Source: a bacterium
GTDB taxonomy: Bacteria > Patescibacteriota > Minisyncoccia > Phycocordibacterales > UBA2100
DNA: 64,000 nucleotides
Direction: 5' to 3'
Assembly: GCA_021781955.1 (NCBI GenBank)
Contig: JAJXVV010000004.1
Location: 1,739 to 65,738, forward strand
The notes under the pieces are model-generated. The model was not told the origin of the DNA. It saw only the letters and a program-made list of their open reading frames with translations, and searched no databases. The position numbers were made by a program, and so were the translations under genes. This document shows, one piece after another, positions 2,431 to 60,227 of this stretch (the first letter of the stretch is position 1; every line of letters begins with the position of its first letter).

Positions 2431-3608
2431 CGAGCCTCGCTCCACGCGAGGGCCGCAGCGCTTACTGCGGCGAGGGAGAAGACGACCGCGATGGCGGCAG
2501 GCGTGGCGATGAGCAATGCGAGCGCTGCGCCGAGCGCGGCACACGCGAGCCTGCCTCCCTGGAGCGCTATCTCCTTGAGCGCGGTGTATTCATCGACGAG
2601 CGAACCGCCATCAGCGCTTTGTTCGAATGCGAGCGAATCAATGCCATGCCTGTTGGGCGCAGTCGCCCGCGAATAGGTGTCGATCAGCACCACGCTGAAC
2701 GCGCCCGAAGCCACGAACTTGAACACCCACGGCGATGCCGCCAAGAGCATGGCGAGGTAGCGGGAGTCTTTCGACGCGCTCCGCTCCAAAAACCGTCGCA
2801 GAGGCGCGCGCGATAAGAGCGAGACGAGGAAGGTGAGGGACAAGAGCGCGCCGACGACCGCGAACGATCGCCACACGAGCAAGAAAATGATCATCGGCCA
2901 GAAAAGCAGGAGCGCCGTGCCCGCAACGCCGTCCCAGAACGCGCGCGAGACCAGCGTGCGATTTTCGAGCAAAAAGAGCCTATCGAACGTCTCGCGGAAA
3001 TCCCACGAGAAATCTTCAGGCACATCGCGCACATAGATGAACGGTATGAACGAGAGCGCGGCGAGCGCTGCGGCGAAGAAAAACAGCCACGCCGCACCGA
3101 GCGGATAGGCGGCGATGATCCAACCGGCGAGCGCGGGCGCAAGCGCGATAAGAACTTCGCGCCGCGTTGAAAAGCCCGCGCGACCGGTCTCGGCCGCTTC
3201 CATCTGGTACGGCACCCAGTAGAGCGCGCGGTACATGCCGAGCGTGAGCGCGAAGCACACCACCCCGACGCGTATCGCGATGTCGGGCCAGACGCCGGAG
3301 AAGAGCGCACCGGCGGTGACGAGGCTCGTTACGACCGCGAGCAGCGCGTAAAGGAGCGGCCGCTGCGCGCCATGCCGCAGCTCCCGCGCCGCGAGCGGCG
3401 TCAGCAAAAGCGTCGTGAGCGATGAGAGTGCGTACAAAAACGCGGTCTGCGCGACCGCGAAATCAATGTTGCCGCGAGTATACAGAAAATACTGGAAGAA
3501 CATGAGCCACGCGAACGCACTCGTGAGCACGAGCGCGGAACGCAACATGACACGATGGACGGAAAGCGGCTGCATGCGCTTCAGTATAAACGAAAACAGC
3601 CCCGGCAT
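2427..3608 (-). CDS. Polytopic membrane protein, putative MFS-like transporter
   Basis: About 12 hydrophobic helices with Arg-rich cytoplasmic loops. No specific family motif was recognised with confidence. Confidence 0.45.
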   Translation of the reverse strand: MPGLFSFILKRMQPLSVHRVMLRSALVLTSAFAWLMFFQYFLYTRGNIDFAVAQTAFLYALSSLTTLLLTPLAARELRHGAQRPLLYALLAVVTSLVTAGALFSGVWPDIAIRVGVVCFALTLGMYRALYWVPYQMEAAETGRAGFSTRREVLIALAPALAGWIIAAYPLGAAWLFFFAAALAALSFIPFIYVRDVPEDFSWDFRETFDRLFLLENRTLVSRAFWDGVAGTALLLFWPMIIFLLVWRSFAVVGALLSLTFLVSLLSRAPLRRFLERSASKDSRYLAMLLAASPWVFKFVASGAFSVVLIDTYSRATAPNRHGIDSLAFEQSADGGSLVDEYTALKEIALQGGRLACAALGAALALLIATPAAIAVVFSLAAVSAAALAWSEAR

Positions 3609-3651
3609 ATGCCGGGGCTGTTCGTAATTCGGTCGGCAAAGCCGACTCGAA

Positions 3652-3948
3652 CTACCAGCGTCCGCCGCCGCCGTTGCCGCCGCGGAAATCGCGGCGAGGC
3701 TCCATCGGGCGAGCTTCGTTCACCGTGAGCGTGCGACCTCCGAAATCCTTGCCGTTCCACTGGTCGATCGCCGTCTGCGCCTCCTCGTCGGAGGACATCT
3801 CGACGAAACCAAAACCCTTGGAGCGGCCGGTCATCTTGTCCATAATGATCACCGCCGAAGTGACGGAACCACACTGGGCGAAGGCGTCCTTGAGCTCGGA
3901 GTCGGTCGTTGCGTAAGGCAAACCGCCGACGTATAGCTTCTTAGCCAT
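3652..3948 (-). CDS. RRM-type RNA-binding protein with glycine-rich tail
   Basis: RNP-2 (LYVGGL) and RNP-1 (KGFGFVEM) motifs, with a C-terminal RGGNGGGGRW tail. Confidence 0.8.
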   Translation of the reverse strand: MAKKLYVGGLPYATTDSELKDAFAQCGSVTSAVIIMDKMTGRSKGFGFVEMSSDEEAQTAIDQWNGKDFGGRTLTVNEARPMEPRRDFRGGNGGGGRW

Positions 3949-4081
3949 TGTCTTGTGTATTGTTTTTTCTAAACATGTAAACCGACCTTTCCCCTGCCCT
4001 GTCGGTTCGCGACCCAGCCGAGAAAACGTACATTCGATACTATCTTGCCGCCTTCATGGAATTTGTCAAGCGCACATCGGG

Positions 4082-4153
4082 TGGACCAGAGGGGAATCGG
4101 ACCCCTGACCTTCTCATTGCAAATGAGACGTTCTACCACTGAACTACTGGCCC
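4082..4153 (-). tRNA. tRNA-Ala (anticodon UGC)
   Basis: Cloverleaf folded by hand. Anticodon loop TTTGCAA. The G3:U70 alanine identity pair is present, with discriminator A. The T-loop reads TCCGATT (C at position 55), which is unusual. Confidence 0.75.
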
Positions 4154-4177
4154 GAGAGATTGAACTGTACCATTCCG

Positions 4178-5146
4178 CTAGACTCGCGCCAACTGAATGG
4201 AATGTTCGAGGAACTCGCGCACCGACGAACCCACCGACTCGAGCATTGGCGGCAAAGATGATCCTTGGTAGAGGCCGGGCGTCGTGTTGACCTCGAGCAA
4301 TACGGGACCGCGCGGCGTAAGGATGATGTCGGCACGCGAAAAGTGCGAAAGGCCGAGCGCGCGGTGCGCTTTGCGCGCCATTTCGGCGAGCGCGGCTTTT
4401 TCTGCATGAGAGAAGTTGCTCGGCACGACGTGCGAGAGCGTTCCCTCCTCATGCGCGCGCGGCGACATAAAAGAGAGGTCGGCCGGGAGCACCACGCGCG
4501 CAGGCGGCAACACGTAAAGCGGTTCGTTGCGGAAATCTTCGATGACGGCGACGCTCGCCTCTTGTCCGCGTACGAACTCCTCGACGAGCGCGGTGCCGAA
4601 GGCGTCGAGGATATCGCCGATCGCGTCCGGCAGCTCGAGCAGGGTCGCCGCTATGATGATTCCGGTGGCCGCGCCCTCCGATGATGGCTTGATCACGTAC
4701 GGCGGTCCGAACTGTTTGAAAACGAATCGCGCCATTTCGGCGGTCGTCATGCCGTCGCGCAGCGAAAGCGCAACGGCTCGCGGCATGCGGATACCCGCGC
4801 CCTCGAGTGTCTCGTGCGCGCGTATCTTATTGAGCGCTGCGGACGCTCCCGCCGCGCGCGAGCCGACGTATGGCACGCTCGCGCGATCGAGTATGCGTTG
4901 TACCGTGCCATCCTCGCCAGCCCCGCCATGGAGGGCGTTCAAAACGACATCGACTTGCGAGAGGGCGCGCGCCGGATCGACCGGCGTACCGCGCACATGC
5001 CAATAGCCTCGCTTATCGATGAAAATGTCGCGGGTGTCGTAGCGTTCCTCGGAGAGCGCCGAAATTATCGCGGCGCCCGTTCTGAGCGACAGGTTGTACT
5101 CGCTTGAAGCGCCGCCACGCAACACGCCGACCGCTGTCCGTGCCAT
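4178..5146 (-). CDS. ddl: D-alanine--D-alanine ligase
   Basis: MARTAVGVLRGGASSEYNLSL... matches the Ddl N-terminus, followed by an ATP-grasp body. Start set at the internal Met so that it abuts uvrC. Confidence 0.85.
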   Translation of the reverse strand: MARTAVGVLRGGASSEYNLSLRTGAAIISALSEERYDTRDIFIDKRGYWHVRGTPVDPARALSQVDVVLNALHGGAGEDGTVQRILDRASVPYVGSRAAGASAALNKIRAHETLEGAGIRMPRAVALSLRDGMTTAEMARFVFKQFGPPYVIKPSSEGAATGIIIAATLLELPDAIGDILDAFGTALVEEFVRGQEASVAVIEDFRNEPLYVLPPARVVLPADLSFMSPRAHEEGTLSHVVPSNFSHAEKAALAEMARKAHRALGLSHFSRADIILTPRGPVLLEVNTTPGLYQGSSLPPMLESVGSSVREFLEHSIQLARV

Positions 5147-5150
5147 CTGC

Positions 5151-6398
5151 TCAGTATACCATCGCCTTGCGACGCCTCGCGCGATGCCACGCGATCGCGA
5201 AGCGATGCGCCTCGTTGTTGGCGAGCAATATGGCGCGCTCATGCCCGGCAATGGCCGCTTGATCGCCAATGAGGCGTTCCGGTTTGTGCGCTCTGTTCTT
5301 TACGACGCCGACAATCGCCGCTTCGATGCCTGCCTCTCGCAACACGCGGCGCGCCGCGCTCATTTGTGCGTTTCCACCGTCCACGACGAAGACCTGCGGC
5401 AGCGGCCATTCGGGATGGCCGAGCCGCCGCGTAAGCGCCTCGGCGAGCGATGCGATATCATCGTTGGTTGCGCCGCGTACCTTGAACTTGCGGTATGCGG
5501 CGGGATGTTTTTCGCCGTCGAGGACGACCGTCATCACGGCGACCGTCTCGCTGCCGCCCGTGTGCGCGACATCGTACGCTTCGATGCGCACACGGTGGCG
5601 CGAAGGTCCGCCCGACGACATGCGACCCTCCCGTTTAATGAGCGAGACGTCGCGAATATGCTCAAGCGCGCCGATTTGTTTCCGCAGGCGCGCCGCTTCT
5701 TCGAAGCGTTCCGCGGATGCGGCGGCTCGCATCTGCGATGCGAGCCGCCGCTTGAGCCCATGGAAATTCGCGGAGAAGAGATCGCGGACGTTGCGGACGA
5801 CCCGCGCATACTCTGCCTTCGTTATCTCGCCCGTACATACGCCGGGACATAGCCCCAGTTGCCTGTTGAAACAGGGCTTGCAGGCTTTATCTTTCCCTTC
5901 GCCGCATGGCGTGCATTTCGAGTCGCGGAATGGGAATATCCGCCGGACTATCTTCATCGCTTCCTGCAACTGCATACCATGCGGGAACGGGCCGAACGTG
6001 CTCGCGATATCTCTCTTGTCCCACTTCGCGTGCAGCTCTCTCCCTCGCACCACCAAGACACGCGGGAACGCCTCTTTTGTGATGACGACGTAGTTGAAGC
6101 TCGTGTTGTCTTTCTCATCGACGTTGTACGGCGGCTGATGCCGCTTGATGAGCTCCGCTTCCAAGAGGAGCGCCTCAAGCACAGAGCCCGTCTCCTGCCA
6201 CGAGAGCGTATTCGCCTCTTCGATCATGCGCACGATGCGCGGCCCGCGCGCCTCGGCGAGATCGGCAGCGAAATAACTGCGCACCCGGCCGCGCAGCGAG
6301 GTCGCCTTACCGACGTAGAGAATGTGCCTGCCTTTCTTGAACAGGTACACGCCCGGATCATCGGGCAATGGGTACGCTTTGAGGTCCATCTTCCGCAT
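5151..6398 (-). CDS. uvrC: Excinuclease ABC subunit C, compact form without the C-terminal (HhH)2
   Basis: GIY-YIG N-terminus (YLFKKGRHILYVGKATSLRGRVRSYF). A Cys-rich segment, a UVR motif (FEEAARLRKQIGALEH) and an RNase H-like endonuclease domain follow. The protein ends right after that domain at 415 aa. Confidence 0.8.
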   Translation of the reverse strand: MRKMDLKAYPLPDDPGVYLFKKGRHILYVGKATSLRGRVRSYFAADLAEARGPRIVRMIEEANTLSWQETGSVLEALLLEAELIKRHQPPYNVDEKDNTSFNYVVITKEAFPRVLVVRGRELHAKWDKRDIASTFGPFPHGMQLQEAMKIVRRIFPFRDSKCTPCGEGKDKACKPCFNRQLGLCPGVCTGEITKAEYARVVRNVRDLFSANFHGLKRRLASQMRAAASAERFEEAARLRKQIGALEHIRDVSLIKREGRMSSGGPSRHRVRIEAYDVAHTGGSETVAVMTVVLDGEKHPAAYRKFKVRGATNDDIASLAEALTRRLGHPEWPLPQVFVVDGGNAQMSAARRVLREAGIEAAIVGVVKNRAHKPERLIGDQAAIAGHERAILLANNEAHRFAIAWHRARRRKAMVY

Positions 6399-6416
6399 GG
6401 CGTGAGTATACGCAGT

Positions 6417-6444
6417 TTGACAAAAAATCGAAGACCGCTAGACT
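6417..6444 (+). promoter_or_regulatory. Candidate sigma70-type promoter for carA (TTGACA - 16 nt - TAGACT)
   Basis: A consensus -35 hexamer and a good -10 hexamer with 16-nt spacing lie about 105 nt upstream of the carA ATG. Read directly from the sequence. Confidence 0.35.
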
Positions 6445-6518
6445 TAGGCTTTAATGTACTCTCGCAAGAAAAAGCACACGAGCACCCGCGAGGGTGTATT
6501 TTTCTACCTATTCGTTTC

Positions 6519-6541
6519 CTCCGCCACCTGCGGACTTTTTA
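6519..6541 (+). promoter_or_regulatory. Small hairpin plus U-tract in the carA leader (possible attenuator)
   Basis: tCCGCcacctGCGGa followed by cTTTTTATT, ending 8 nt before the carA ATG. The stem is short, so this is weak. Confidence 0.2.
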
Positions 6542-6548
6542 TTGCGGT

Positions 6549-7577
6549 ATGAAGCTCTTCCTCGAAGACGGCACTTTGACGGCTGGCGAGAGCTTCGGAG
6601 CGCCGATCGATGCCGCAGGCGAGGTCGTGTTCAACACGGGCATGACGGGCTACGTCGAGAGCTTTACCGATCCATCATACGCCGGACAGATCGTCGTGCT
6701 CACCTACCCGCTCATTGGCAACTACGGCGTCCCCGATCCCTCCGCCTGGGAATCGGCCAAAGTGCACATCGCGGGACTCATCGTAAGCGAGTACTCGGCG
6801 CAATATTCGCACTTCGACGCGCAACGCTCGCTTTCTGAATGGCTCAAGGCCGCCGGCGTGCCGGCGATAAGCGGCGTCGATACGCGCGCCCTCACCAAAA
6901 GACTCCGCGAGCACGGGATCATGCTCGGCCAGCTCTCGCATTCCGGAAAGAAAGGTGCGTTCGTCGACCCGAATGCCGACAACCTCGTCGCGAAAGTCAG
7001 CGTGAAGGCGCCTTCCCTACATGGCAGCGGACCGAAGAAGATCATCGCGATCGATTGCGGCATGAAGGAGAACATCATGCGCAGCCTCGTGCGGCCGGAG
7101 ACGACCGTTGTCCGCGTGCCCTGGGACCACGATTTCACCCGCGATGCGTACGACGCGCTCTTCATATCGAACGGTCCAGGCGATCCTACCCGATGCGTCG
7201 CGACGATCGAACATATTCGCCAGGCGATGACGGCCGGCAAGCCGATACTCGGCATCTGCCTCGGCAACCAACTCCTCTCGCTTGCTGCCGGCGGCAAAAC
7301 CTACAAGCTCAAGTACGGACATCGCGGACAAAATCAGCCTGCGCTCGAAAAGGGCACCGATCGTTGCTTTATCACCTCACAGAACCACGGCTTTGCGGTC
7401 GATCCCAAAAAGCTCTCGAAGGAGTGGGACGAATGGTTCGTCAATGGCAACGACGGCTCGAACGAAGGCGTGCGCCACAAGACGAAGCCGTGGCGCTCGG
7501 TCCAGTTCCATCCCGAAGCCTGCCCCGGCCCTACCGACACCGCCTGGATATTCGACGAATTCATCGAAACGATATGA
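6549..7577 (+). CDS. carA: Carbamoyl-phosphate synthase small (glutaminase) subunit
   Basis: MKLFLEDGTLTAGESFGAP..., a class-I glutamine amidotransferase triad region (GICLGNQLL), and HGFAV. The stop overlaps the carB start (ATGA). Confidence 0.9.
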   Translation: MKLFLEDGTLTAGESFGAPIDAAGEVVFNTGMTGYVESFTDPSYAGQIVVLTYPLIGNYGVPDPSAWESAKVHIAGLIVSEYSAQYSHFDAQRSLSEWLKAAGVPAISGVDTRALTKRLREHGIMLGQLSHSGKKGAFVDPNADNLVAKVSVKAPSLHGSGPKKIIAIDCGMKENIMRSLVRPETTVVRVPWDHDFTRDAYDALFISNGPGDPTRCVATIEHIRQAMTAGKPILGICLGNQLLSLAAGGKTYKLKYGHRGQNQPALEKGTDRCFITSQNHGFAVDPKKLSKEWDEWFVNGNDGSNEGVRHKTKPWRSVQFHPEACPGPTDTAWIFDEFIETI

Positions 7578-10500
7578 ATGATGTAAAAAAAGTCCTGCTT
7601 CTTGGATCGGGAGGGTTGCGTATCGGACAGGCGGGCGAATTCGATTATTCCGGCTCGCAAGCGATAAAAGCGCTCAAGGAGGAGGGCGTCGAGGTCGTGC
7701 TCATGAACCCCAACATCGCGACGGTGCAAACGGACCTGCCCGTCGATGCGCCCGCCAAAGCCGCGCCGAAGACTCGCCGCACACGTCCGGCACGCGCGCC
7801 GCAGCCGGACCAGAAATTCGCGGACACGGTCTATTTTCTTCCGCTCACCAAAGAGTTCGCGGCCGACGTCATCGCCAAGGAGAAGCCGGACGCCATCCTG
7901 CTCTCGTTCGGCGGCCAGACCGCGCTCAATCTCGGACTCGAACTCGAGGAGAGTGGCGTTTTGGCCGAACACGGCGTGCGCGTACTCGGCACGCCCGTCT
8001 CGACCATTCGCGATACGGAGGACCGCGACCTGTTCATCAAACGCTTGGACGAGATCGGCGTAAAGACCGCGCGTTCCGAAGCCGCGAACACGATCGAGGA
8101 AGCGCTCGAAGCGGCGCGCGAGCTCGGGTACCCGCTCATGATACGCGCGGGATTCGCGCTCGGCGGGCTTGGCTCGGGCGTCGTACAGGACGAGCCTGAG
8201 CTCACCCGGCGGCTCGAGGAGGTATTCCATTCCACGTCGCAGGTGCTCGTCGAGGAGAATTTGAGCGGCTGGAAAGAGGTGGAGTACGAGGTCGTACGCG
8301 ATCGGGCCGACAACTGCATCACGGTCTGCAACATGGAGAACCTCGATCCGATGGGCGTCCACACCGGCGAGAGCTTCGTGGTCGCGCCCTCGCAAACGCT
8401 TTCCAATGAGGAGTACCACCGCCTGCGCGAGATAGCCATCCGCACGATCCGCCACCTCGGCATCGTCGGCGAATGCAACATCCAGTACGCGCTCGATCCG
8501 CGCAGCGGCGATTACCGCGTCATAGAGGTCAACGCGCGCCTTTCGCGCTCCTCCGCGCTCGCCTCGAAGGCGACCGGCTATCCGCTCGCCTTCGTCGCGG
8601 CCAAGCTCGCGCTCGGGTACCGGCTTACCGACATCAAGAATTCCGTGACCGGCAAGACGACTGCCTGCTTCGAGCCCGCGCTCGACTACCTCGTCCTCAA
8701 AGCGCCGCGCTGGGACCTCGCCAAGTTCGATAATGCGGCTGCGCACATCGGCACGGAGATGAAGAGCGTCGGCGAGGTGATGGCGATCGGGCGCAGTTTC
8801 GAGGAGGTGCTGCAAAAAGCGCTCCGCATGCTTAACACCGGACTCGACGGCTTCGTTCTTGGCAAGCATTCCCCCTCCCTCGAACGCGCGCTCGATGAAA
8901 TCGAGCATCCGACGACGCGCCGCATCACGGCGCTTGCCGAAGCGCTCCACGCGGGCGAGAGCGTCGCGAGGCTGCACGAGCTTTCCAAGATCGACCCGTG
9001 GTTCCTCGAAAAGATGCGGAACATCGTCGCCTGCGAGGAACGCATCGCTCGGGAAGGCTTGGATCAGAGTAGTCTCACGCGCGCGAAGCGCCTCGGCTTC
9101 TCAGACAAGCAGCTCGCGAAACTCACCCGTTCGACGGAAGGTGCGGTGCGCACGTTGCGCAAGCGGCTGCGCGTGACGCCGGTCGTAAAGCAAATAGACA
9201 CGCTCGCGGGCGAATTTCCGGCACGGACGAACTACCTCTATCTCACCTACCACGGCAGCGAACACGATCTCAAACCCGGCCGCCGCTCGCAAATCGCCGT
9301 GTTGGGCGGCGGCCCGTACTGCATCGGGTCGTCGGTCGAGTTCGACTGGTCTTCGGTGCAAGCGTTGCGCACGCTCAAACGAGAGCGGCACGACACCATT
9401 ATGATCAACTCGAACCCCGAGACCGTCTCGACCGACTACGACATGTCGGACCGACTCTACTTCGAGGAGCTCTCGCTCGAGCGCGTGCTTGATATTCTCG
9501 ACTTCGAGAAGCCGCAGGGCGTCGTTATCTCGACCGGCGGCCAGATACCGAACAACCTCGCGCTCCCGCTCCACGAACACCGCGTGAACATCCTCGGCAC
9601 ATCTCCCGCCAACATCGATCGCGCCGAGAACCGGCACGTGTTCTCACAGATGCTCGACGAGCTCGGCATCGCACAAGCCGAGTGGGCCGAGCTCACGACG
9701 CCCGAGGAAGCGGCCCGCACAGCCGAGCGCATCGGCTATCCCGTCCTCGTCCGACCTTCATACGTCCTTTCGGGCGCTGCCATGAAAGTCGCGTACGATG
9801 CCGATTCTTTGATTGCCTTTCTACGGCGCGCGGTCGACGTTTCCTCCGACCATCCGGTCGTCATATCGAAATTCATCGAGAACGCGCGCGAGATCGAGAT
9901 CGACGGCGTGGCCGACAAAGGCGCGCTCGCCATCTACGCCATCACCGAACACGTCGAGAACGCGGGCACGCACTCGGGCGATGCGACCGTCGTGCTCCCG
10001 CCGCAGCGCACCTACCTCGAGACGATCCGCCGCGCCAAACTCATCACCAAGCGCCTCGTGCGCGCGCTCAACATCACCGGCCCCTTCAACATCCAGTTCA
10101 TCGCGAAGGACAACCACCTGCTCGTCATCGAATGCAACCTCCGCGCGTCGCGCAGCTTCCCGTTCGTCTCAAAGGTGACCGGCCACAACTTCATCGATAT
10201 GGCGGTGCGCGCGATGCTCGGCAAGGATATCAGCGGCCACTACCGCACCGTCGATCTCGACCTTGTCGCGGTCAAATCCCCGCAATTCTCCTACGGGCGC
10301 ATCAAAGGCGCCGACCCGCGCACCGGCGTCGAAATGGCATCGACCGGTGAGGTCGCCTGTTTTGGCGACTCTTTCAGCGAAGCGCTCCTGAAATCGATGC
10401 TCGCCTCCGGCATGCGACTGCCGAAAGGCAACGTGCTCGTCTCTGTAGGCGGCGAAGAAAGCAAGATAAAACTATTGCCGATCATGCGTCTCATGCACGA

Positions 10501-10834: not shown

Positions 10835-13443
10835 TCCCGCTTCTTTCTCAACACTCGTTTGAGGTAATGCCCCGTGTGCGAGCCATCGGTGCGGGAGACC
10901 TCTTCGGGAGTCCCCTGAGCCACGATCTGCCCGCCACCCGCGCCTCCTTCAGGGCCCATGTCGATGAGATAGTCGGCGCACTTGAGCATGTCGAGATTGT
11001 GCTCGATGACGACGACCGAGTTGCCGCGATCGACAAGCTTCTGCAGTATTTGTATGAGCTTCGCAACGTCGTCGTAATGCAAACCGACGGTCGGCTCGTC
11101 GAGCAAGTAGATGGTCTTGGTCGTAAGGGGACGATACAGTTCGGACGCGATCTTCACGCGCTGCGCTTCCCCACCGGAAAGCGTCGTCGCGCTCTGGCCG
11201 AGTTCGAGATAGCCGAGCCCCACGTCTATGAGCGTTTGCAGCCGATCGGCTATCGCCGGAATATCGTCGAAAAATCCGCGCGCCTCCTCGACCGTCATCG
11301 AGAGCACGTCGTGGATGTTCTTTTTCTTGTATTTCACCTCGAGCGTCTCTTTCATGAACCGCTTGCCATTGCACACGTCGCAGGTCACGTACACGGTCGG
11401 CAAAAAGTGCATCTCGACGGCGACGAGCCCATTGCCTTGGCAAGCCTCGCAGCGGCCGCCGCGCACGTTAAACGAGAAGCGGCTCGGCCCCCAGCCGCGC
11501 GCCTTCGCCTCATCGCTCATCGCGAACATATCGCGAATGTGCGTCCACGCGCCCGTGTAGGTGGCTGGATTGCTGCGCGGCGTGCGCCCGATGGGCGATT
11601 GATCGATGAGTATCGCGCGACCGAGATACTCGGTGCCAGAAAATTCCTTGGCGTTGTAAATTTTGGCCGTGCGGTAGCGCTTGTCGAAGCGCGCCCGCAA
11701 ATTGCGGTGCAGTATCTCGTAGAGGAAGGTCGACTTGCCGGAACCGGAAACGCCCGACACGACGACGAACTTCTGGAGCGGTATGTCCGCGTTGAGGTTC
11801 TTGATGTTGAATTTCTCTGCGCCGCGTATCTTCAGCTTGCCTCGATCGGCCGTACGGCGCTTCTCGGGAAGTTCGATGCGCTCCTCCTCGCGCAGGTACG
11901 CGAGCGTCCGCGAACCGCTCTTATTGGTCTTGGCGGTAAGCAAATCCTCAAGCCAGCCGGACACGACGATGGTGCCGCCGTGCGTCCCGGCGCCCGGACC
12001 GATGTCGACGAGGTAATCGGCAGCGAAGATCGTATCTTCATCGTGCTCGACCACGAGGACCGTGTTGCCGAGTTCGCGCAAGTGCTTCAGCGTCTCGATG
12101 AGCTTGTCGTTGTCGCGCTGATGCAGACCGATCGTCGGTTCGTCGAGCACGTAGAGCGCTCCGACCAATCCCGAGCCGAGCTGTGACGCGAGCCGTATGC
12201 GCTGCGCTTCGCCGCCCGAGAGCGTGTTTGCCTTGCGATCGAGCGTAAGGTATTCAATCCCGACATTGAGCATGAATTGCAGTCGCGACGTAATCTCCTT
12301 GATGATGACGCGCGAGATATCCTGTTCGGTTTTCGTGAGTTTCAGATCGCTGAAGAAGACGATCGCCTCTTCGATGGATAACGACGACAATTTGACGATA
12401 TCTGCGCCTTTCGCGGGCGCGTCGTGCGCTGCGGGTTCCTTTACATGCCCGAGGAACACGTTGAGCGCCTCGGATCGCAGGCGCGCGCCGTGGCACACGT
12501 CGCATGACTCGTCACCGAAGAGGTATTTCGTGCCGAGCCCCTTGCATTCTGGGCATGCGCCATACGGCGAATTGAACGAGAAGAGGCGCGGCTCGATCTC
12601 GGGGAACGAAAAGCCGTCGTACGCACACATGAACTTCGCCGACACGATGCGGCTTTCGCCTCCAACGTCGGTGATCTTCACGAGGCCGTCGGCCTCATGA
12701 AGCGCGCGCTCGATGGCCTCGAGCGCGCGCTCACGAGCGCCTTTCGGGTCGTCGCTGAACTCGCTCACGAAGATATCGTCGACGACGATATCGACATCGT
12801 GCTTGGAATTCTTCTTGAGCTCTATGCGGGAACGCAGCGATTTTTCTTCGCCGTCGACGACGGCCTTTTCGTACCCCTTGTTGAGCATGTCATACAAGAG
12901 CTGGTAATACTCCCCTTTTCGTCCGACCACGACGGGCGCGGCGATGCGGATCTTGTCGGTCGAGACGCCTTTCGTCAGCTTACCGCCGTTTGCGCCTTTC
13001 CGCACCGACTCAACGACCGCGAGGACCGACTCCAGTATCTCCTCATTGGAGAGCTTGCGCACCTCCCTGCCGCACTGCGGGCAGTGCGCGTGCCCTATCC
13101 GCGCGTAGAGGACGCGCAGATAGTCGTATATCTCGGTGATCGTCGCGACCGTCGAGCGCGGATTGTTCGAGCGACTCTTCTGATCGATGGATATCGCCGG
13201 CGAGAGCCCGGATATCTCGTCTACGTCGGGCTTTTGCATTTGCCTCAGGAACTGCCGCGCATAGGCTGAGAGCGATTCGACGTACTTGCGCTGACCCTCC
13301 GCAAAGATGGTGTCGAACGCGAGCGACGACTTCCCGCTCCCCGACAGCCCGGTGAACACGATCATCTTATTGCGCGGCATCTCGACGCTCACATTCTTGA
13401 GGTTATGCGTTCTCGCTCCCTTGATGATTATTTTATCTTCCAT
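10831..13443 (-). CDS. uvrA: Excinuclease ABC subunit A
   Basis: Two ABC ATPase modules ([12 protein letters not shown]; [10 protein letters not shown]), LSGGE signature motifs and zinc-finger Cys pairs. 870 aa. Confidence 0.9.
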
Positions 13444-15472: not shown

Positions 15473-17491
15473 CTATTTTCGCACATCTTTTTCCAGCGCT
15501 TGTATCTCGTCGCGGATGAGCGCGGCGGTCTCGAAGTCGAGCCGGTCGGCCGCCTCGTGCATCTCGCGGCGCTTCTCGCGGATGAGCTTCGCGAGGTCAG
15601 TGCCGGCGGCGCGCTCATCTATGCGTGCGAGCTCGGAGATGGCCCGCGCGCGCGAGCGTTGGATATCGCCGGTGATGTCCTTGATGCGCTTCTCGACTGT
15701 CTTTGGCGTAACGTGATGCTTCGCGTTGTGCGCGAGCTGGATCTCGCGGCGGCGATTCGTCTCTCCGACCGCTCTTTCGAGCGAGCCGGTCATGCGGTCG
15801 GCATACAGTAGTACGCGGCCGTTCACGTTGCGCGCCGCGCGGCCGATCGTTTGGATGAGCGAGGTCTCGCTTCGGAGAAAACCCTCCTTGTCCGCGTCGA
15901 GGATGCCGACCAATTCCACTTCCGGAAGATCTAATCCCTCGCGCAGCAGGTTCACGCCCACGAGCACGTCGAACGCGCCACGGCGGAAGTCGGTGAGGAT
16001 CTCAATGCGTTCGATGGTTTTCACATCGCTGTGGAGGTAGCGCGCTTTCACGCCGCGCTCGACGAGGAATTGCGCGAGGTCCTCGGCCATCTTTTTCGTG
16101 AGCACGGTCACCATGGAGCGAGCGCCGCGTTTCGTCGTTGCTTCCGCTTCGGCGATAAAATCCTTGACCTGCCCAGAGGACGGTCCTCTGCGGTTTTCTG
16201 CGGATACGTCGGCGGTAACGGGGCGAATGACGATCTCCGGATCGACGAGGCCGGTCGGACGGATGACTTGCTGTATCGGCGTACCGCTCAGCCCGAGTTC
16301 GTACGGCGCCGGCGTCGCGGATGTGTAGATGGTCTGTCCCGTGCGCTCGCGGAACTCGTCGAACGTGAGCGGGCGGTTGTCGACGGCGCTCGGCAAGCGG
16401 AAGCCGTGCTCGACGAGCGTATTTTTGCGCGAACGATCTCCCGCGTACATGCCGCCGATCTGCGAGATGGTCACGTGAGACTCATCGATGACAGTGAGAA
16501 AATCTTTTGGGAAATATGAGAGCAGCGTGTAGGGCGGCTCCCCCGGCTTGCGGCGGTCGAAATGCCGCGAGTAATTCTCGATGCCGTTGCAGTAGCCGAA
16601 CTCGCGGATCATGGTGATGTCCTGGCGCGTTCGGCGCTTCAAGCGCTCAGCTTCGAGCGGCTTGCCGGCGGCATCGAGCTCCTTGAGCCGCTGCTTGAGT
16701 TCCGCTTCGATGTCGGCGAGCGCCGCATCCTGCACATCCTTCGGCGTCACATACTGGCGCGCCGGGAAGATGAACAGCGCTTCATGCCGCGTGACGATGG
16801 CGCGCGTCATCGCATCTATCTCCTCTATCTTGGAGACGCGACCGCCCGCGAGATCGATCCGATAGACGACTCGCTCGCCCGCCGGCATGACCTCGACGTA
16901 CGCACCGAGCGCGCGGAACGTGCCGGGCGAAAGATCGCCGGTCGTACGCTCGAAGTAGATGGAGATGAGCTTGCGGGTGAGCGTTGCGCGCGTCATCTGC
17001 TCGCCCTGCATCAGCTTGAGATTGACCTTCTCGTACTCAATCGGCGAACCGAGGCCGTAGATGCACGAGACCGACGCGACGACGATGACATCCTTGCGCG
17101 TGAGGAGCGCCTGCGTCGCGGCATGCCGCAAGCGCTCGATGTCCTCGTTGATCTGCGCCTCTTTCTCGATGTAGGTGTCGGTGACGGGCACGTACGCTTC
17201 CGGCTGATAGTAGTCGTAGTAGGAAACGAAATAATGCACCGCGTTGTGCGGGAAGAACTCGCGGTACTCAGCGGCGAGCTGCGCGGCAAGAGTTTTGTTG
17301 TGCGCGATGACCAGGGTCGGGCGCTGCGCCTCGGCGATCATGTTGGCGACCGTAAAAGTCTTGCCCGAACCGGTCACGCCGAGGAGCGTCTGATCACGCT
17401 TTCTCTCTTGTAGGCCCTGCACGAGCGAACGAATGGCCTCCGGCTGATCGCCGGAGGGCTGGTATGACGATTCGAGCTTGAACCCGTTCAC
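15473..17491 (-). CDS. uvrB: Excinuclease ABC subunit B
   Basis: Helicase motifs (GVTGSGKTFT), beta-hairpin region and a C-terminal UVR domain (FETAALIRDEIQALEK). 672 aa. Confidence 0.9.
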   Translation of the reverse strand: MNGFKLESSYQPSGDQPEAIRSLVQGLQERKRDQTLLGVTGSGKTFTVANMIAEAQRPTLVIAHNKTLAAQLAAEYREFFPHNAVHYFVSYYDYYQPEAYVPVTDTYIEKEAQINEDIERLRHAATQALLTRKDVIVVASVSCIYGLGSPIEYEKVNLKLMQGEQMTRATLTRKLISIYFERTTGDLSPGTFRALGAYVEVMPAGERVVYRIDLAGGRVSKIEEIDAMTRAIVTRHEALFIFPARQYVTPKDVQDAALADIEAELKQRLKELDAAGKPLEAERLKRRTRQDITMIREFGYCNGIENYSRHFDRRKPGEPPYTLLSYFPKDFLTVIDESHVTISQIGGMYAGDRSRKNTLVEHGFRLPSAVDNRPLTFDEFRERTGQTIYTSATPAPYELGLSGTPIQQVIRPTGLVDPEIVIRPVTADVSAENRRGPSSGQVKDFIAEAEATTKRGARSMVTVLTKKMAEDLAQFLVERGVKARYLHSDVKTIERIEILTDFRRGAFDVLVGVNLLREGLDLPEVELVGILDADKEGFLRSETSLIQTIGRAARNVNGRVLLYADRMTGSLERAVGETNRRREIQLAHNAKHHVTPKTVEKRIKDITGDIQRSRARAISELARIDERAAGTDLAKLIREKRREMHEAADRLDFETAALIRDEIQALEKDVRK
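16173..16190. repeat. 18-bp perfect palindrome CCAGAGGACGGTCCTCTG (copy 1 of 3), inside the uvrB CDS
   Basis: Read directly. On the coding strand it translates in-frame to RRGPSSG within uvrB. Confidence 0.8.
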
Positions 17492-17503
17492 CAGAACACT
17501 CTA

Positions 17504-18748
17504 CTACGAAAGCAGCAGCGCGCACACTTGCTTCTTGCCGCGGCGAAGCATCGCGATGCCTTCGTGAAAGTCGGCAGCATCGAGGACGCGCTTTTCGTCC
17601 ACGACCTGGTCGTTGAGGGCTACGGCCCGGTCCGCAAGGAATTGCCGCGCCTCGCGCTTGGACGACGCGAGCGATGAGGCGATGAGCGCGTCGACGAGCG
17701 GCATGCCTGCCTGCACCTCGCAGTGCGGCGCGGCGCGGCGCAACGTCTCGCGCGCGTGTTCCGACAAAATGTCGAGCGACGCTTCGCCGAAAAGCACCTC
17801 AGTGACCGACTCCGCTTCCTCCGCTTGTTCCTGCCCGTGTACGAGCTTGGTCACCTCGCGCGCGAGCAAACGCTGCGCGCCGCGCGATTTCTTATTTCGC
17901 TTGTGCAGTTCGGCGGCAGCAGCTATCTCTTCGAGCGTCAGGAGCGTAAAGAGCTTCAAATAGTGCTCGACGCTCTCGTCGTTCACATTGAACCAGAATT
18001 GGTAGAACGCGTACGGCGTCGTCATCTCCGGATCGAGCCAGATGGCATTGCCCTCGCTCTTGCCAAATTTCTTCCCGCTCGCCTTGTCGGTGACGATGGG
18101 CAGCGTCAAGCCGTAGGCGGTCTTCTCTTCTTTGCGACGAATGAGATCAACGCCGGTCACGATATTGCCCCACTGATCGGAGCCGCCGACCTGCACGTCG
18201 CAGCCATGCTCCGTGAAGAGGTGCCAGAAATCGTACGCTTGCAAGAGCGGGTACGAGAATTCCGTGAACGATATTCCCTCTTCGCTCTTGAGTCGCGCGG
18301 CGATCGCGTCTTTTTTGACGAGGCCGTTGACCGTGAAATATTTGCCGATATCGCGAAGGAACGCGATGAGATCGAGCTTCGTGAGCCAATCGGCGTTGTT
18401 GACCGCCGTCAGCTCGATACCACCGAGAAGTTTCTGCGCCTGTGTTCTGAGCTTTTCGGCGCGCGCGGCGATGGTCGCCTCATCAAGGAGCGGGCGCTCG
18501 ACATCGGGTTTCGGATCGCCGATGAGTCCGGTGCCGCCACCCAAGAGCACGATGACCCTATGTCCAGCTTCAGCAAAGTGTCGTAAAAGCATGTAACCGG
18601 CGAGGTTGCCGATGTGGATGGATTCTGCGGTCGGATCGACGCCAAGGTAAACTGTGCGCTTGGGACCGTCGGTAATTTCCTCAAGCCTCTCCGACGAGAA
18701 TTGGTAGACAAACCCGCGCCGTTGCAGCGTCTCGGACAATTTCACCAT
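17504..18748 (-). CDS. tyrS: Tyrosine--tRNA ligase
   Basis: Class I HIGH motif (SIHIGNL) and KMSKS-like motif (KFGKSEGN), with a C-terminal S4-like domain. Start at MVKLSETLQRRGFV. Confidence 0.9.
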   Translation of the reverse strand: MVKLSETLQRRGFVYQFSSERLEEITDGPKRTVYLGVDPTAESIHIGNLAGYMLLRHFAEAGHRVIVLLGGGTGLIGDPKPDVERPLLDEATIAARAEKLRTQAQKLLGGIELTAVNNADWLTKLDLIAFLRDIGKYFTVNGLVKKDAIAARLKSEEGISFTEFSYPLLQAYDFWHLFTEHGCDVQVGGSDQWGNIVTGVDLIRRKEEKTAYGLTLPIVTDKASGKKFGKSEGNAIWLDPEMTTPYAFYQFWFNVNDESVEHYLKLFTLLTLEEIAAAAELHKRNKKSRGAQRLLAREVTKLVHGQEQAEEAESVTEVLFGEASLDILSEHARETLRRAAPHCEVQAGMPLVDALIASSLASSKREARQFLADRAVALNDQVVDEKRVLDAADFHEGIAMLRRGKKQVCALLLS

Positions 18749-20756: not shown

Positions 20757-21491
20757 ATGATCGAGGTCAAGAACATAATCAAAACGTACGGATCCGGAGA
20801 CGCCGCGTTCCAAGCGCTCAAGGGCGTCACATTCACCATCCAAGACGGAGAGTTCGTCGCTATTATGGGCCCGTCGGGTTCCGGCAAATCGACGCTCATG
20901 CATATCCTCGGCTGCCTCGACACCGCGACCTCCGGCTCGTACGTCCTCGACGGCAAAGACGTCTCTCGGCTCTCGGACGACGATCTCGCGACCATCCGCG
21001 GGCAGCGCATCGGCTTCGTGTTCCAATCGTTCAACCTCCTTCCCCGCACGAGCGTGCTGCGCAACGTCATGCTTCCGCTCGTGTACGACGCGGCGATACC
21101 GCTCGAGGAGCGCCACGCGCGCTCGTCGGCGGCGCTGCGTGCTGCCGGCCTTTCCGATGAGTTCTTCGGACACTTGTCCAACCAGCTCTCCGGCGGACAA
21201 ATCCAGCGCGTCGCTATCGCGCGGGCGCTCGTCAACGATCCGACGATGATACTGGCCGACGAACCGACCGGTAACCTCGACACGATGACCGGCGAGATCG
21301 TGCTCGGCACCTTTCAACGGCTGAACGAGGAGCATAAACGCACGATCGTGCTCATTACGCACGAACCCGACGTCGCCGAGCACGCGGAACGCATCATCAC
21401 GGTGCGCGACGGGCTTATCACGTCAGATTCCAAGAATCACAAGCGCCGCCGCGCGCTCCTCGCCGAAGCGAGCGCGCGCCAACCCGTATGA
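20757..21491 (+). CDS. ABC transporter ATP-binding protein, MacB/LolD type
   Basis: Walker [10 protein letters not shown], signature LSGGQIQR and Walker [12 protein letters not shown]. Confidence 0.85.
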
Positions 21492-22738
21492 AAACGAAAG
21501 ACCTCCTCGAAGAGACTGTGACTGCGCTCTCGGCCAACAAGGCGCGTTCAAGCCTCACCGTTCTGGGCATCGTCATAGGCATCTCGTCCGTCATCGCGAT
21601 GATATCGGTCGGCCAAGGCGCTTCCTCCGGCATCCAGTCGTCCATCCAATCCCTCGGTTCCAACCTCATCATGGTGACGCCGGGCGCAGCGCGAGGACCT
21701 GGCGGCTTCGGCGTGAGCGCGGGCCGCGGATCGGCTTCGACGCTCGTCCAGGCCGACGCCACCGCTATCGCCTCTTCCGTTCAAAACGTCACCGCCCTCT
21801 CGAGCGAGGTCTCGAGCCGGCAGCAAGTGACCGCAAAAGGCACAAACACCAACGTCTCCGTCGACGGCGTCAACGCCGCATACGCGCAGGTCCGCAATGT
21901 GCAGATGGACCAGGGATCGTTCGTGACCGATCAGCAGAGCCAAAGCCTGCAGAAGGTCGCCGTGCTGGGACCCACCGTCGCGAGCGATCTTTTCGGCACC
22001 GACAGCACGACGGCCGACGGCCTGCCGGCCGGTATCGTCGGGCAGGCCATCCGGATCAAGAGCATGCAGTTCATCGTTATCGGCATCACCCAGTCGAAGG
22101 GCGGAAGCGGCCCTGGCAATCAGGACGACATGGTCTACATTCCGCTTGAAACGGCCCAACTCTTCCTCACGGGCAACAATTCGGTCACGACCATCGATAT
22201 CCAAGCTGCGAGCGCCAACGCGATGACGCAAGTGCAGAATGACATCACGACGCTGCTCCTGCAGCGCCACAACATTTCCGATCCGACGAAAGCCGACTTC
22301 AGCACGCTCAACCAGAACGACCTGCTCTCGACGGTTTCGAACGTTACGCAAACGCTCACCATCCTGCTCGCCTCGATCGCAGGCATCTCGCTTCTGGTCG
22401 GCGGCATCGGCATCATGAACATGATGCTCACCACCGTGACCGAACGCACCCGCGAGATCGGTCTGCGTAAGGCGATCGGAGCGAAACGCGGCGATATCAG
22501 TACGCAATTCCTCGCTGAGGCGGTCATGCTAACGCTCCTCGGCGGCGCGATCGGCGTTTTGCTCGGCGTCGGCATCTCCTACGTGGTCGGCGCGCTCGGC
22601 CTCATCGCCACGATGATATCGTGGAATTCGGTCGTGCTCGCCTTCGGCGTCTCGGCCGCGATCGGCATCGCCTTCGGTTACTACCCGGCGCGGCGTGCCG
22701 CTCACATGAACCCGATCGACGCGCTCCGCTACGAGTGA
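21488..22738 (+). CDS. ABC transporter permease, MacB/FtsX family
   Basis: N-terminal TM helix, a large periplasmic MacB-PCD-like domain and a C-terminal 3-TM FtsX domain. The overlapping stop/start suggests translational coupling with the ATPase. Confidence 0.8.
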   Translation: MKTKDLLEETVTALSANKARSSLTVLGIVIGISSVIAMISVGQGASSGIQSSIQSLGSNLIMVTPGAARGPGGFGVSAGRGSASTLVQADATAIASSVQNVTALSSEVSSRQQVTAKGTNTNVSVDGVNAAYAQVRNVQMDQGSFVTDQQSQSLQKVAVLGPTVASDLFGTDSTTADGLPAGIVGQAIRIKSMQFIVIGITQSKGGSGPGNQDDMVYIPLETAQLFLTGNNSVTTIDIQAASANAMTQVQNDITTLLLQRHNISDPTKADFSTLNQNDLLSTVSNVTQTLTILLASIAGISLLVGGIGIMNMMLTTVTERTREIGLRKAIGAKRGDISTQFLAEAVMLTLLGGAIGVLLGVGISYVVGALGLIATMISWNSVVLAFGVSAAIGIAFGYYPARRAAHMNPIDALRYE

Positions 22739-23946: not shown

Positions 23947-25394
23947 CGTTCCGGGCGCAGGAGCGGGAAAAGCTGCGCCTCGTGGGCGGGGACGTTCTCG
24001 AGAAAGGCAAAAAGGCGTTCCGAGACACCGAAGCCGAAGGAAGGTGGCATGCCGTACTCCATCGCGCGCACGTATGCATCATCGAGGCGCTGCGCCTCGT
24101 CGTCGCCTTCGTCGCGCAGCCTCTGTTGCTCCTCGAAGCGCGTGCGCTGATCGAGCGGATCGTTGAGCTCGCTAAAGCCCTTGCCTACCTCGCTGCCCGC
24201 GAGAATGACCTGCAAGCGTTCGACCGTTTCCGGCTTTTCGACGAAGCGCTTCGCGAGCGGCTCCAGATAGACCGGCACGCCGACCAGAAACGCTGGTCCG
24301 GAAATGCCTTTGCGCAGTTTTTTCCAAAGATGGTCGACCGCGCGCGCTTTGTTGAGCGTCTCTCCCACCTCGATGTGCGCATCGCGCACCGCCCGTACCG
24401 CCTCCTCTTCGCTGCACGAGAGCGGATCGATGTCGTACTCTTTTTGTATCGCGTCGCAAAAATCGACGACCTTCCATTCCTCGGCGAGATCGATCGTGTG
24501 ACCATGCATTTCGAACGTGTACTTCCCGTAGACCTCCTTGGCGATCGAGCGGTAAAGCTCCTGCACGAACACGCCGCCTTTTTTAAGGTCGCTGTACGCT
24601 TCGTACGACTCGAGCTGTGTATAATCCTGCAAGTGCTCGCGCGACTGGCCTTCATTGCGGAAAATGCGGCCGATCTCGAAGACTTTCGGGAAACCCGCGA
24701 TCAAAAGCTCCTTTTGCCAGAGCTCGCCTGCGGCAATGCGTAGATACACTTCGATATCGAGCGCGTTGTGATGTGTAATGAACGGACGCGCATCGGCTCC
24801 GCCGGGCGTCGTCTCAAGAGCGGGCGTTTCCACCTCGAGGAAACCGCGCGCGCGATAAAAGTCACGTATCGCTTGCCAGAATCTCGCGCGCCGCTCGAAG
24901 CGTTGCCGGAGCTCGCCATTGAGCAATATATCGAGGTACCGTCGGCGCAATTTGAGCTCTTCGTCCTTGAGGCCGAACCAGCTGTCGGGCACGGGGAGGA
25001 GCGATTTTGAAAGCATGCGCCAGGAGCGCTGCCGGAGCGATGATTGTCCGCGCCTGGTTTTGAAAGCGGTTCCCGTAAACTCCACGAAATCGCCGACATC
25101 GACGGCCTGCGAGAACAGGTCGACCTGGCTCCCTTCGCCTTCTTGCACGACGACCTGTGCCTTACCCGTGCCATCGGACACATCGACGAACGTGATGCCG
25201 CCCTGCCCGCGCAGGGAAAGGACGCGGCCGGCCAACGTCGTTGGCCGGCCGCTCTCTTCCAATTCGCCGAATCCCGCGAGAAAATCCGCACACGACGCGT
25301 CGCGAGCAGTCGACGCTGGATATGCGGGCATCCCCGCTTCCCGCAGCAATTCGATTTTCTTGAGTCGCTCCGCTCGGATATCCGCTTCGCTCAT
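23943..25394 (-). CDS. lysS: Lysine--tRNA ligase (class II)
   Basis: OB-fold anticodon-binding N-terminus and class II motifs (FRNEG; GGGIGIDRL-like ...GFGFGVSERL). Start at MSEADIRAERLKK. Confidence 0.9.
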   Translation of the reverse strand: MSEADIRAERLKKIELLREAGMPAYPASTARDASCADFLAGFGELEESGRPTTLAGRVLSLRGQGGITFVDVSDGTGKAQVVVQEGEGSQVDLFSQAVDVGDFVEFTGTAFKTRRGQSSLRQRSWRMLSKSLLPVPDSWFGLKDEELKLRRRYLDILLNGELRQRFERRARFWQAIRDFYRARGFLEVETPALETTPGGADARPFITHHNALDIEVYLRIAAGELWQKELLIAGFPKVFEIGRIFRNEGQSREHLQDYTQLESYEAYSDLKKGGVFVQELYRSIAKEVYGKYTFEMHGHTIDLAEEWKVVDFCDAIQKEYDIDPLSCSEEEAVRAVRDAHIEVGETLNKARAVDHLWKKLRKGISGPAFLVGVPVYLEPLAKRFVEKPETVERLQVILAGSEVGKGFSELNDPLDQRTRFEEQQRLRDEGDDEAQRLDDAYVRAMEYGMPPSFGFGVSERLFAFLENVPAHEAQLFPLLRPER

Positions 25395-37164: not shown

Positions 37165-37192
37165 GAAAAACCCCGCCTCGTGGCGGGGTTTT
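37165..37192. terminator. Intrinsic terminator (AAAAACCCCGCC-tcgt-GGCGGGGTTTTT) after the secreted Ala-rich protein gene
   Basis: A perfect 8-bp GC stem flanked by an A-tract and a T-tract, so it could act in both directions. Read directly. Confidence 0.55.
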
Positions 37193-37212
37193 TGTGCGAT
37201 ACGACGGAATGA

Positions 37213-39948: not shown

Positions 39949-39971
39949 AGGGGCTTGCCCCCAGAGGACCG
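39949..39971. repeat. Palindrome copy 2 of 3 (CCCCAGAGGACCGTCCTCTGGGG), intergenic
   Basis: The same 18-bp core with a C at the centre, extended by CC/GG to a 23-bp near-perfect palindrome. It lies 40-60 nt upstream of the purF start and just downstream of the gpmA stop. Confidence 0.8.
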
Positions 39972-40010
39972 TCCTCTGGGGAAAGTTGGGGATAAGGGCT
40001 TGCACTGATG

Positions 40011-59861: not shown

Positions 59862-60227
59862 ATGATTCCATTTTTCTACATGTTCTACCGGTTCGGGCGA
59901 AGCGTATGGGCGTCACTGAAAGACCCGGAGTTCGAGGCGCTCTTTACGCTCATGCTCATCGTGCTCAGCGTCGGTACGCTTTTTTATCACGAGGCCGAGG
60001 GCTGGGGTTGGCTCGATTCGCTCTTTTTCAGCGTGACAACGCTCACGACCGTTGGCTACGGCAACCTTGTACCACACACCGCGATCGGCAAAATATTCAC
60101 CATTGCATACCTCTTCGTCGGCATCGGCGTTCTGCTCGGATTCATCAACTTCGTCGCTGACCACGCCATCAAGGAGCATAAGGATTCGAGCATTTTTCCA
60201 TGGCGCAAAAACTCCTCGTCATCGTAG
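59862..60227 (+). CDS. Two-TM potassium channel pore protein (KcsA-like)
   Basis: K+ selectivity filter TVGYGN between two TM helices. The 3' end overlaps the miaA start by 28 nt. Confidence 0.7.
   Translation: MIPFFYMFYRFGRSVWASLKDPEFEALFTLMLIVLSVGTLFYHEAEGWGWLDSLFFSVTTLTTVGYGNLVPHTAIGKIFTIAYLFVGIGVLLGFINFVADHAIKEHKDSSIFPWRKNSSSS

Follow-up and report, generated by a model that had tools for sequence, protein, structure and literature searches.

The closest described counterparts of the element reported here are the repetitive extragenic palindromes (REPs), stem-loop palindromes of about 14-40 nt, and the REP-associated tyrosine transposases (RAYTs), whose HUH/Y1 genes are bracketed by the cognate REP and whose repeats form doublets with a short spacer, the REPINs (REP doublets forming hairpins) (Nunvar et al. 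2010; Bertels & Rainey 2011). REPs tagged with GTAG or CGTC were shown by Di Nocera et al. (2013) to be intragenic and translated, as singlets or dimers, in several phyla; such intragenic copies are a documented minority of REPs, are concentrated in uvrA, uvrB, uvrC, uvrD, polA and recBCD, where they encode up to 20-30 residues, and in the GTAG/CGTC systems of Proteobacteria and Verrucomicrobia the RAYT genes are flanked by the cognate REP (PMC3733652). The same authors speculated on mutation-rate effects of REPs in repair genes, and reported that uvrB of R. conorii carries two in-frame palindromic inserts (PMC3733652). Here we describe a 17-nt palindrome in the uvrB gene of a bacterial contig, JAJXVV010000004.1, of which a stretch of 64,000 nt (hereafter the window) was analyzed. 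The palindrome is probably a REP-type hairpin that was mobilised in trans by a RAYT-like Y1 transposase and persists as a translated, likely neutral passenger in a permissive loop of UvrB. Since intragenic repeats in repair genes have been described before in other bacteria, the uvrB case adds an example to a known phenomenon.

The uvrB product matched solved UvrB chains from end to end (E = 6e-235), and its closest homologues, 78-100% identical, are labelled Ca. Kaiserbacteria or Paceibacterota; judged by these sequences, the source organism is a Candidatus Kaiserbacteria of the candidate phyla radiation (CPR). An identical UvrB protein was recorded on five contigs (NCBI and ENA). The plus-strand letters of the palindrome in this gene are CAGAGGACGGTCCTCTG, with arms of 8 bp around a single central nucleotide. 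The minus strand, which is the coding one, has C|AGA GGA CCG TCC TCT G at this place and codes for R435-G436-P437-S438-S439 together with one base each of the R434 and G440 codons, so that the predicted peptide spanning the insert is ...AENRRGPSSGQVK... (all coordinates of window features are collected in Table 1). With either base at the center, the element is CAGAGGAC-S-GTCCTCTG (CAGAGGACSGTCCTCTG).

Three exact copies of the 17-mer were found in the window (16174, 39962 and 60723), against none expected and none in 100 dinucleotide-preserving shuffles of the same sequence. As single-stranded DNA (ssDNA), the three copies fold into hairpins with stems of 7-10 bp, a loop of 3 nt and a minimum free energy (MFE) of -7 to -11.2 kcal/mol; the uvrB copy has a stem of 7 bp and an MFE of -7 kcal/mol (centroid -6.1), whereas the intergenic copy reaches -11.2 kcal/mol (z = -5). 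The latter lies 33 nt beyond the stop codon (40011) of a gpmA-like gene, and the likely start of purF follows after about 50 nt. The third copy, in miaA, is read in a different frame from that in uvrB. The flanks of the three copies are unrelated and share nothing beyond the 17 bases, and a search of Rfam at gathering thresholds returned five tRNAs only and nothing at the three palindrome sites.

The preliminary description of this locus, made by comparison with UvrB sequences from E. coli and B. subtilis, had proposed that the protein is about 13 residues longer than usual and that the palindrome and its flanks encode the excess. A phmmer alignment with the solved chains 9gy7_E and 3uwx_B bore out both the size and the place of the difference, showing a single 13-residue gap exactly at the palindrome and none elsewhere ('rpvTADVSAENRRGPSsgqvkdf' against 'kPV-------------kGQIDDL'). 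We then surveyed 120 aligned cluster-representative homologues, taking as the loop the segment between RP(I/V)(V/T) and GQVKDF. It comprises 6 residues, typically 'SSADYA', in 80 of the 120 Kaiserbacteria proteins and 8-27 residues in the other 40; Bacillus UvrB has 1-2 residues at this position. In the nearest relative, P0002 (locus L130, 87% identity), the site reads GCG AAG GAT GAC TAC ATC GGG CAG (AKDDYI-GQ) and is palindrome-free. The site is likewise short and empty in the uvrB genes of L050 and L051, the only useful ones among the matches listed in a metagenome scan that returned mostly distant loci.

The window protein is longer than P0002 by 7 residues (21 nt), and of the 13 extra residues some 5 are accordingly usual for the lineage and some 7 (21 nt) particular to this genome; the palindrome itself accounts for no more than about 7 of the 13. 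Thus, the earlier proposal was right about the location of the excess but too broad as to its content, and in addition the native loop residues, including a conserved Tyr, are replaced rather than merely separated. One relative, P0014 (81% identity), has an equally long loop without the 17-mer, a case that might have spoken against an insertion. Since this loop is unrelated in sequence and bears only its own 12-nt palindrome, GCTGGC|GCCAGC, it does not do so. In an AlphaFold model built with 50 homologues, the mean pLDDT (predicted local distance difference test) of which was only 66.7 and which was used solely for secondary structure and local confidence, residues 424-440 form a coil between a strand and a helix, and pLDDT falls below 50 at residues 429-438. 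In-frame insertion of a small palindromic element into a UvrB loop, as first suggested, is supported by the place of the length difference, the lack of the palindrome in the closest relatives, the multi-copy nature of the 17-mer, its association with a RAYT-like transposase in other CPR genomes (see below), and this coil of low model confidence; the open reading frame (ORF) remains intact.

A 7-nt direct repeat had also been noted beside the palindrome. It is present, with TCTGCGG units (plus strand) at 16187-16193 and 16197-16203, the first of which shares the last 4 bases of the palindrome. The significance of the repeat is marginal, the chance of a 7-mer repeat so near a given site being about 4% (a rough estimate, not computed). 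Its two units are found to one side of the palindrome, and a target-site duplication was therefore rejected as its explanation. To judge by the doublets found in relatives (see below), it could be what remains of a second REP unit that was truncated.

Other genomes gave an indication of the nature of the 17-mer. In a scan of one genome per species, the source genome not among them, multiple copies were present only in CPR metagenome-assembled genomes (MAGs): nine in Vogelbacteria JACPIA01, five in Saccharibacteria CAZGAF01, and two each in CAYHEP01 and 'bacterium E14'. The Vogelbacteria copies are extended to TTACCA-17mer-TGGTAA. Single matches elsewhere were discounted as chance, most of them being terminator stems or native codons (Tgt 'LPEDRPL', L040), and the one match among viral contigs was uninformative. 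In three of the loci, the palindrome accompanies a transposase gene: (i) in L025 (Vogelbacteria), a 226-aa ORF with an HUH motif (5176-5856) is bracketed by 17-mers at 5182 and 5872; (ii) in L030 (Saccharibacteria), a Y1 gene (3987-4634) has a 17-mer at both ends, at 3990 and 4642; and (iii) in L022 (Nomurabacteria), a 17-mer at 6544 forms the 3' end of a Y1 gene (5871-6572), upstream of which three tandem variants recur with a 34-nt period. The homologues in L030 and L022 were found beside the 17-mer by tblastn. All three proteins conserve the HUH motif and the tyrosine of YxxxN, score above the cut-off of Pfam Y1_Tnp (PF01797, IS200-like), and have as their sole NCBIfam match NF047646, the REP-associated tyrosine transposase (E = 5e-11 to 5e-15). 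Their Y1 family has more than 7000 relatives, the labelled ones being Patescibacteria.

REP/RAYT systems are defined by a transposase gene that its own palindromes bracket, and we therefore read the 17-mer as a putative REP-type element belonging to one RAYT-like clade; the family, whose core is GGAC-S-GTCC, would circulate among genomes of CPR/Patescibacteria. The identity of copies at unrelated sites and in other CPR classes shows that they share an origin. Several further copies were observed in the same material. The Saccharibacteria transposase gene contains an in-frame REP doublet, QRTVLYGEDRPL (L030, 4126-4165), and the Nomurabacteria gene an in-frame variant encoding RRGRSF (L022, 6039). 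Two copies of the palindrome, extended to 25-29 nt, are present in 'bacterium E14' (JAUSHA01; L015, 3400-3416; L045, 334). The former copy is inside a ksgA/rsmA-like ORF (2736-3857; 16S rRNA dimethyltransferase-like), in which by eye there is no obvious length change relative to E. coli KsgA; the latter has a RAYT-like gene at a distance of 1.5 kb. Finally, a MAG labelled Oscillospiraceae, not CPR, carries two REP copies with an identical 11-nt 3' flank (L028, 3434 and 3701) about 1.5 kb from a RAYT-like gene, a case that could reflect either a wider host range or a binning error.

The symmetry of the family was analyzed using every GGWC-N-GWCC core in the CPR loci, which gave 33 distinct 21-mers. 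Arms vary by lineage (CAGA/TCTG, CCAA/TTGG, CGAA/TTCG and GCAAA/TTTGC), and GGTC-S-GACC cores are found in L133 and L137; nevertheless, 89.7% of cells over the 33 variants are complementary, and none of 500 shuffles attained the observed score. The covariation of pair 9/13 is imposed by the core filter and is to be ignored, but the outer pairs, not imposed by selection of the variants, covary as well (pair 5/17: GC 15, AT 13). The conserved trait is self-complementarity and not a fixed sequence, which fits either a hairpin recognised in ssDNA or a symmetric site for a dimeric protein.

Compared with the described systems, the 17-mer has the size and hairpin of the REP class, and it resembles the repeats of Di Nocera et al. 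in being a short multi-copy palindrome that occurs in-frame in ORFs, uvrB included, and in being associated with RAYT-like genes that it flanks. It differs in that it has no terminal GTAG or CGTC tag (CGTC occurs only at the center of the palindrome, on one strand), its unit is only 17 nt, its host belongs to the CPR, and its transposase is of a divergent clade below the NCBIfam RAYT cut-off. REPs are predominantly extragenic and as a rule follow directly after ORFs; in the window, by contrast, only the copy at 39962 is intergenic, the other two being inside uvrB and miaA. The resemblance to REPIN/RAYT systems lies in the bracketed HUH/Y1 genes (L025, L030, L022) and in the short-spacer doublets of relatives' uvrB, uvrA and miaA (L131, L133, L140, L138). 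However, the window copies, that in uvrB among them, are singlets, the relatives' doublets measure about 36-45 nt versus about 100 nt, some are direct rather than inverted (L141), and copies are often intragenic. The Rickettsia palindromic elements (RPEs), a classic precedent reportedly described by Ogata et al. in 2000, are similar as in-frame palindromic repeats in housekeeping genes of a small, gene-dense genome whose protein is apparently functional; yet RPE-1 is about 100-150 bp long with a consensus of its own, and the likeness is one of behaviour. We know of no established link between RPE-1 and a RAYT. With the insertion sequences IS200/IS605, the system shares the Y1_Tnp fold family, a hairpin recognition element and the lack of target-site duplication, but here the element has no transposase between left and right ends and no conserved target tetranucleotide, and the Y1 gene is present once per locus examined, not as a multi-copy insertion sequence. 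A miniature inverted-repeat transposable element would have terminal inverted repeats with a target-site duplication, and no such duplication accompanies any of the three copies.

In the explanation that we consider probable, a Y1/HUH RAYT-like transposase would make or move copies in trans by acting on the ssDNA hairpin, which is the mechanism proposed for REP/REPIN-RAYT and IS200/IS605 systems. The copy in uvrB would have survived because it is in-frame and resides where the second helicase domain begins, in a coil whose structure is permissive; there it would be translated as RRGPSSG and carried as a neutral or near-neutral passenger, not as an adaptation. In compact genomes with little intergenic space, tolerant protein loops may be among the few places in which such elements persist, and this would explain the repeated occupation of the same loop by different palindrome families. 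Several findings weigh against this explanation. The NF047646 scores are only 40-56 bits, compared with an equivalog cut-off of 80, and peptides encoded by the 17-mer were found in only 2 of 120 RAYT-family proteins; the link between the 17-mer and RAYTs holds for particular clades, not for the whole family. Neither tblastn nor a profile search detected a RAYT-like gene in the 64-kb window, and a cognate enzyme in the source organism is hypothetical. No window copy has a conserved GTAG/CGTC flanking tag or a target-site duplication. Since the native UvrB loop is replaced and the available relatives are at most 87% identical, the exact boundaries of the insertion cannot be drawn. Furthermore, in a 120-homologue MiaA alignment, the miaA copy adds no length relative to the 119 homologues, and simple insertion does not account for the miaA copies.

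The MiaA loop in question also holds REP-type palindromes, which are read in two frames, in three further Kaiserbacteria: a singlet in the same codon register as the window copy (L139, 7950-7970), an inverted doublet adding 3 residues (L140, 1070-1115), and a direct doublet (L141, 1730-1775). These copies look like replacements of loop codons rather than simple insertions, and the possibilities are insertion with a compensating deletion, conversion from another copy, or template switching.

The UvrB loop has been occupied repeatedly. One-third of Kaiserbacteria UvrB proteins (40/120) have an extended loop at this site, and clear inverted repeats were present in eight of the nine extended-loop uvrB genes for which DNA was obtained, representing several unrelated families (Table 1). 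A GGWC-S-GWCC core is common to the window, P0038 (found on 22 contigs), P0022 and P0006, whereas the remaining loop palindromes belong to unrelated families. Palindromes of several families were also found in other housekeeping genes of relatives: the UvrB-loop doublet of L133 recurs in uvrA of the same genome (11821-11857), a hairpin scan showed that the palindrome of L136 has a related variant both in uvrC of that locus (21236-21260) and in carA of L133 (18133-18157), and L131 has related palindromes in msrA (7878-7896) and carB (18394-18428) and another in uvrC (21720-21765). An exact-pattern search found no further copies of the L136 or L138 loop palindromes in their own loci (22 kb in the case of L138); for L138, this lack of a second copy is to be set against a copy density of about 1 per 20 kb. 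As the loci examined are centered on the uvrB-uvrA-carBA-uvrC cluster, no enrichment in repair genes can be claimed. UvrA of seven Kaiserbacteria shows about 5 variable insertion sites. The Kaiserbacteria-like contig L051, in which the uvrB site is empty, carries a different 29-nt family, AATTATCTAGAGCT-S-AGCTCTAGATAATT, three times in 9.5 kb (599-627, 1110-1138 and 8006-8032).

Table 1 Features of the window and palindromes at the UvrB loop in Kaiserbacteria. Positions refer to the window; relatives are given as protein / locus.
Feature	Position	Strand	Description
uvrB	15473-17491	minus	intact 672-aa ORF; from the ORF list and a full-length match to solved UvrB chains
Putative REP-type palindrome, copy 1	16174-16190	no strand	CAGAGGAC-G-GTCCTCTG, perfect, in-frame in uvrB, encodes RRGPSSG
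Putative REP-type palindrome, copy 2	39962-39978	no strand	intergenic; arms reach 11 bp (39959-39981)
Putative REP-type palindrome, copy 3	60723-60739	no strand	in-frame in miaA (60200-61123, plus strand), encodes P-E-D-G-P-L
7-nt direct repeat	16187-16203	no strand	TCTGCGG-ttt-TCTGCGG (CCGCAGA-aaa-CCGCAGA on the other strand)
Extended variable loop, UvrB A427-S439 (ADVSAENRRGPSS)	16175-16213	minus	between strand 419-423 and helix 441-454
UvrB loop, window			the 17-mer
UvrB loop, P0038 / L131			ACCGAGGACGGTCCTT-10 nt-AAGGACCGTCCTCGGT; doublet, 16-bp arms
UvrB loop, P0022 / L133			AAGGTCGGACCTT-10 nt-AAGGTCCGACCTT; doublet, 13-bp arms
UvrB loop, P0006 / L137			decayed form of the P0022 type
UvrB loop, P0108 / L136			tandem ATGAACGACTT-acg-AAGTCGTTCAT
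UvrB loop, P0046 / L138			perfect 42-nt palindrome
UvrB loop, P0011 / L142			near-perfect palindrome, 25 nt
UvrB loop, P0041 / L143			arms of 22 nt, 32 nt apart

The very same UvrB position is taken by five or more unrelated palindrome families, and in miaA the copies alter the sequence but not the length. It is therefore conceivable, though we think it rather unlikely, that hairpin elements in Kaiserbacteria genuinely target the UvrB loop and one MiaA loop as hot spots, which they would enter by replacement. Conversion or a template switch may then overwrite loop codons instead of a simple insertion taking place. If true, this would be an undescribed mode of REP spread, and it would make the unexplained association between REPs and excision-repair genes testable in a natural series of alleles.

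Among the rival explanations, the best surviving one, which we nonetheless regard as improbable, holds that the 17-mer is not mobile but a selected motif, such as an uptake-type sequence or the site of a dimeric protein, spread by point mutation together with biased uptake or recombination and accumulating in weakly constrained parts of genes without a change in length. The miaA copy and that of L139, both length-neutral and in the same codon register, are what such a process would give, and the exact 17-mer is common to distant CPR classes. Moreover, in Neisseria and Pasteurellaceae uptake sequences are overrepresented in genes for genome maintenance, and CPR bacteria presumably depend on taking up DNA. 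However, three copies per 64 kb is a low density compared with about 1 per kb for the fixed motifs of DNA uptake sequences and uptake signal sequences, and the substitutions by which the arms differ between lineages compensate each other, a variation that a motif fixed by its receptor would not tolerate. A selected motif also does not lead one to expect that the 17-mer clusters around and within transposase genes in three genomes, that the doublet architecture is common, or that the uvrB copy does coincide with added length.

Slightly less credible still is an origin in place, in which a replication template switch (quasi-palindrome correction or fold-back copying) made the palindrome as a by-product of replication or repair and nothing was imported. 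Long perfect palindromes do occur in the window within genes whose coding sequence keeps its native length (lysS 25224-25252, miaA 60443-60473 and putative uvrC 5719-5751), and the 42-nt palindrome that fills the L138 UvrB loop, also perfect, is found nowhere else in its 22-kb locus. But this process would yield unique, locally derived palindromes, whereas the 17-mer is identical at three unrelated sites in the window and recurs beside a transposase gene in CPR lineages that differ at the level of phylum; in addition, some of the window palindromes are self-complementary codon strings (ERAL). Origin in place is hence a minority hypothesis that is alive for some window palindromes and does not fit the 17-mer.

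These other palindromes of the window merit a short description; codon symmetry does not obviously account for those in lysS, miaA and putative uvrC. That in lysS (minus strand) is a perfect 29-nt palindrome, GCGGCCGGCCAACG-T-CGTTGGCCGGCCGC, with 14-bp arms; there is no indel relative to solved LysRS structures (PDB), and one arm codes for the conserved LAGR motif, the other for a variable segment. Those in miaA and putative uvrC are perfect, with 14- and 15-bp arms, lie in coding sequence of apparently native length and are not repeated elsewhere in the window; they may have arisen by template-switch 'perfection' of quasi-palindromes. In uvrA (12701-12731 and 12772-12792), palindromes result from peptide and codon symmetry, namely GAG CGC GCG CTC (ERAL, GAGCGCGCGCTC) and DIVVDDI. 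High-GC codon usage alone makes long palindromes and inflates hairpin counts. We therefore dropped hairpin counts against mononucleotide shuffles as evidence for REPs, because such self-complementary strings (ERAL, DIVVDDI) overstate the enrichment. A further palindrome, AAAAACCCCGCC-tcgt-GGCGGGGTTTTT (37166-37193), resembles an ordinary intrinsic terminator acting in both directions and has no relation to the REP family.

It is also very unlikely, marginally more so than an origin in place, that the insertion is adaptive, altering an activity of UvrB (helicase-domain coupling or partner binding) and kept by selection. This view takes up the speculation that repair proteins decorated by REPs tune mutation rates. 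It draws on the presence of an insert in precisely this loop in one-third of the UvrB proteins of Kaiserbacteria, on the palindromes in relatives' uvrA and uvrC, and on the repeated hits to nucleotide excision repair (NER) genes in unrelated phyla (PMC3733652). However, the inserts have neither sequence nor reading frame in common and add anything from 2 to 21 residues, so that no shared peptide is conserved, and the closest relatives function without any insert. The apparent preference for NER genes is biased by the sampling of uvrB-uvrA-carBA-uvrC loci, and palindromes occur in msrA, carA, carB and miaA as well. Finally, a chance palindrome or an assembly artefact, which the single 17-mer matches in unrelated genomes, mostly terminator stems or native codons (Tgt 'LPEDRPL', L040), might have favoured, is effectively refuted by the copy number (three against none in 100 shuffles) and by independent assemblies, namely the identical UvrB on five NCBI/ENA contigs and relatives with related palindromes at the same site (P0038, 22 contigs).

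If the 17-mer is indeed a REP-type hairpin moved by a RAYT-like transposase, as we consider probable, then REP/RAYT-type repeats and their in-frame residence in excision-repair genes would extend to the CPR. A search of the available literature found no paper linking RAYTs with CPR bacteria, which is absence of evidence only. Such inserts inflate the apparent divergence of proteins and can mislead the alignment and annotation of CPR core genes. Furthermore, the Kaiserbacteria UvrB proteins provide natural alleles at a single loop, comprising an empty site, singlets, doublets, decayed copies and unrelated families, which could be used for studying how hairpin elements enter essential genes and decay there, and whether their link with NER is one of targeting, tolerance or function.

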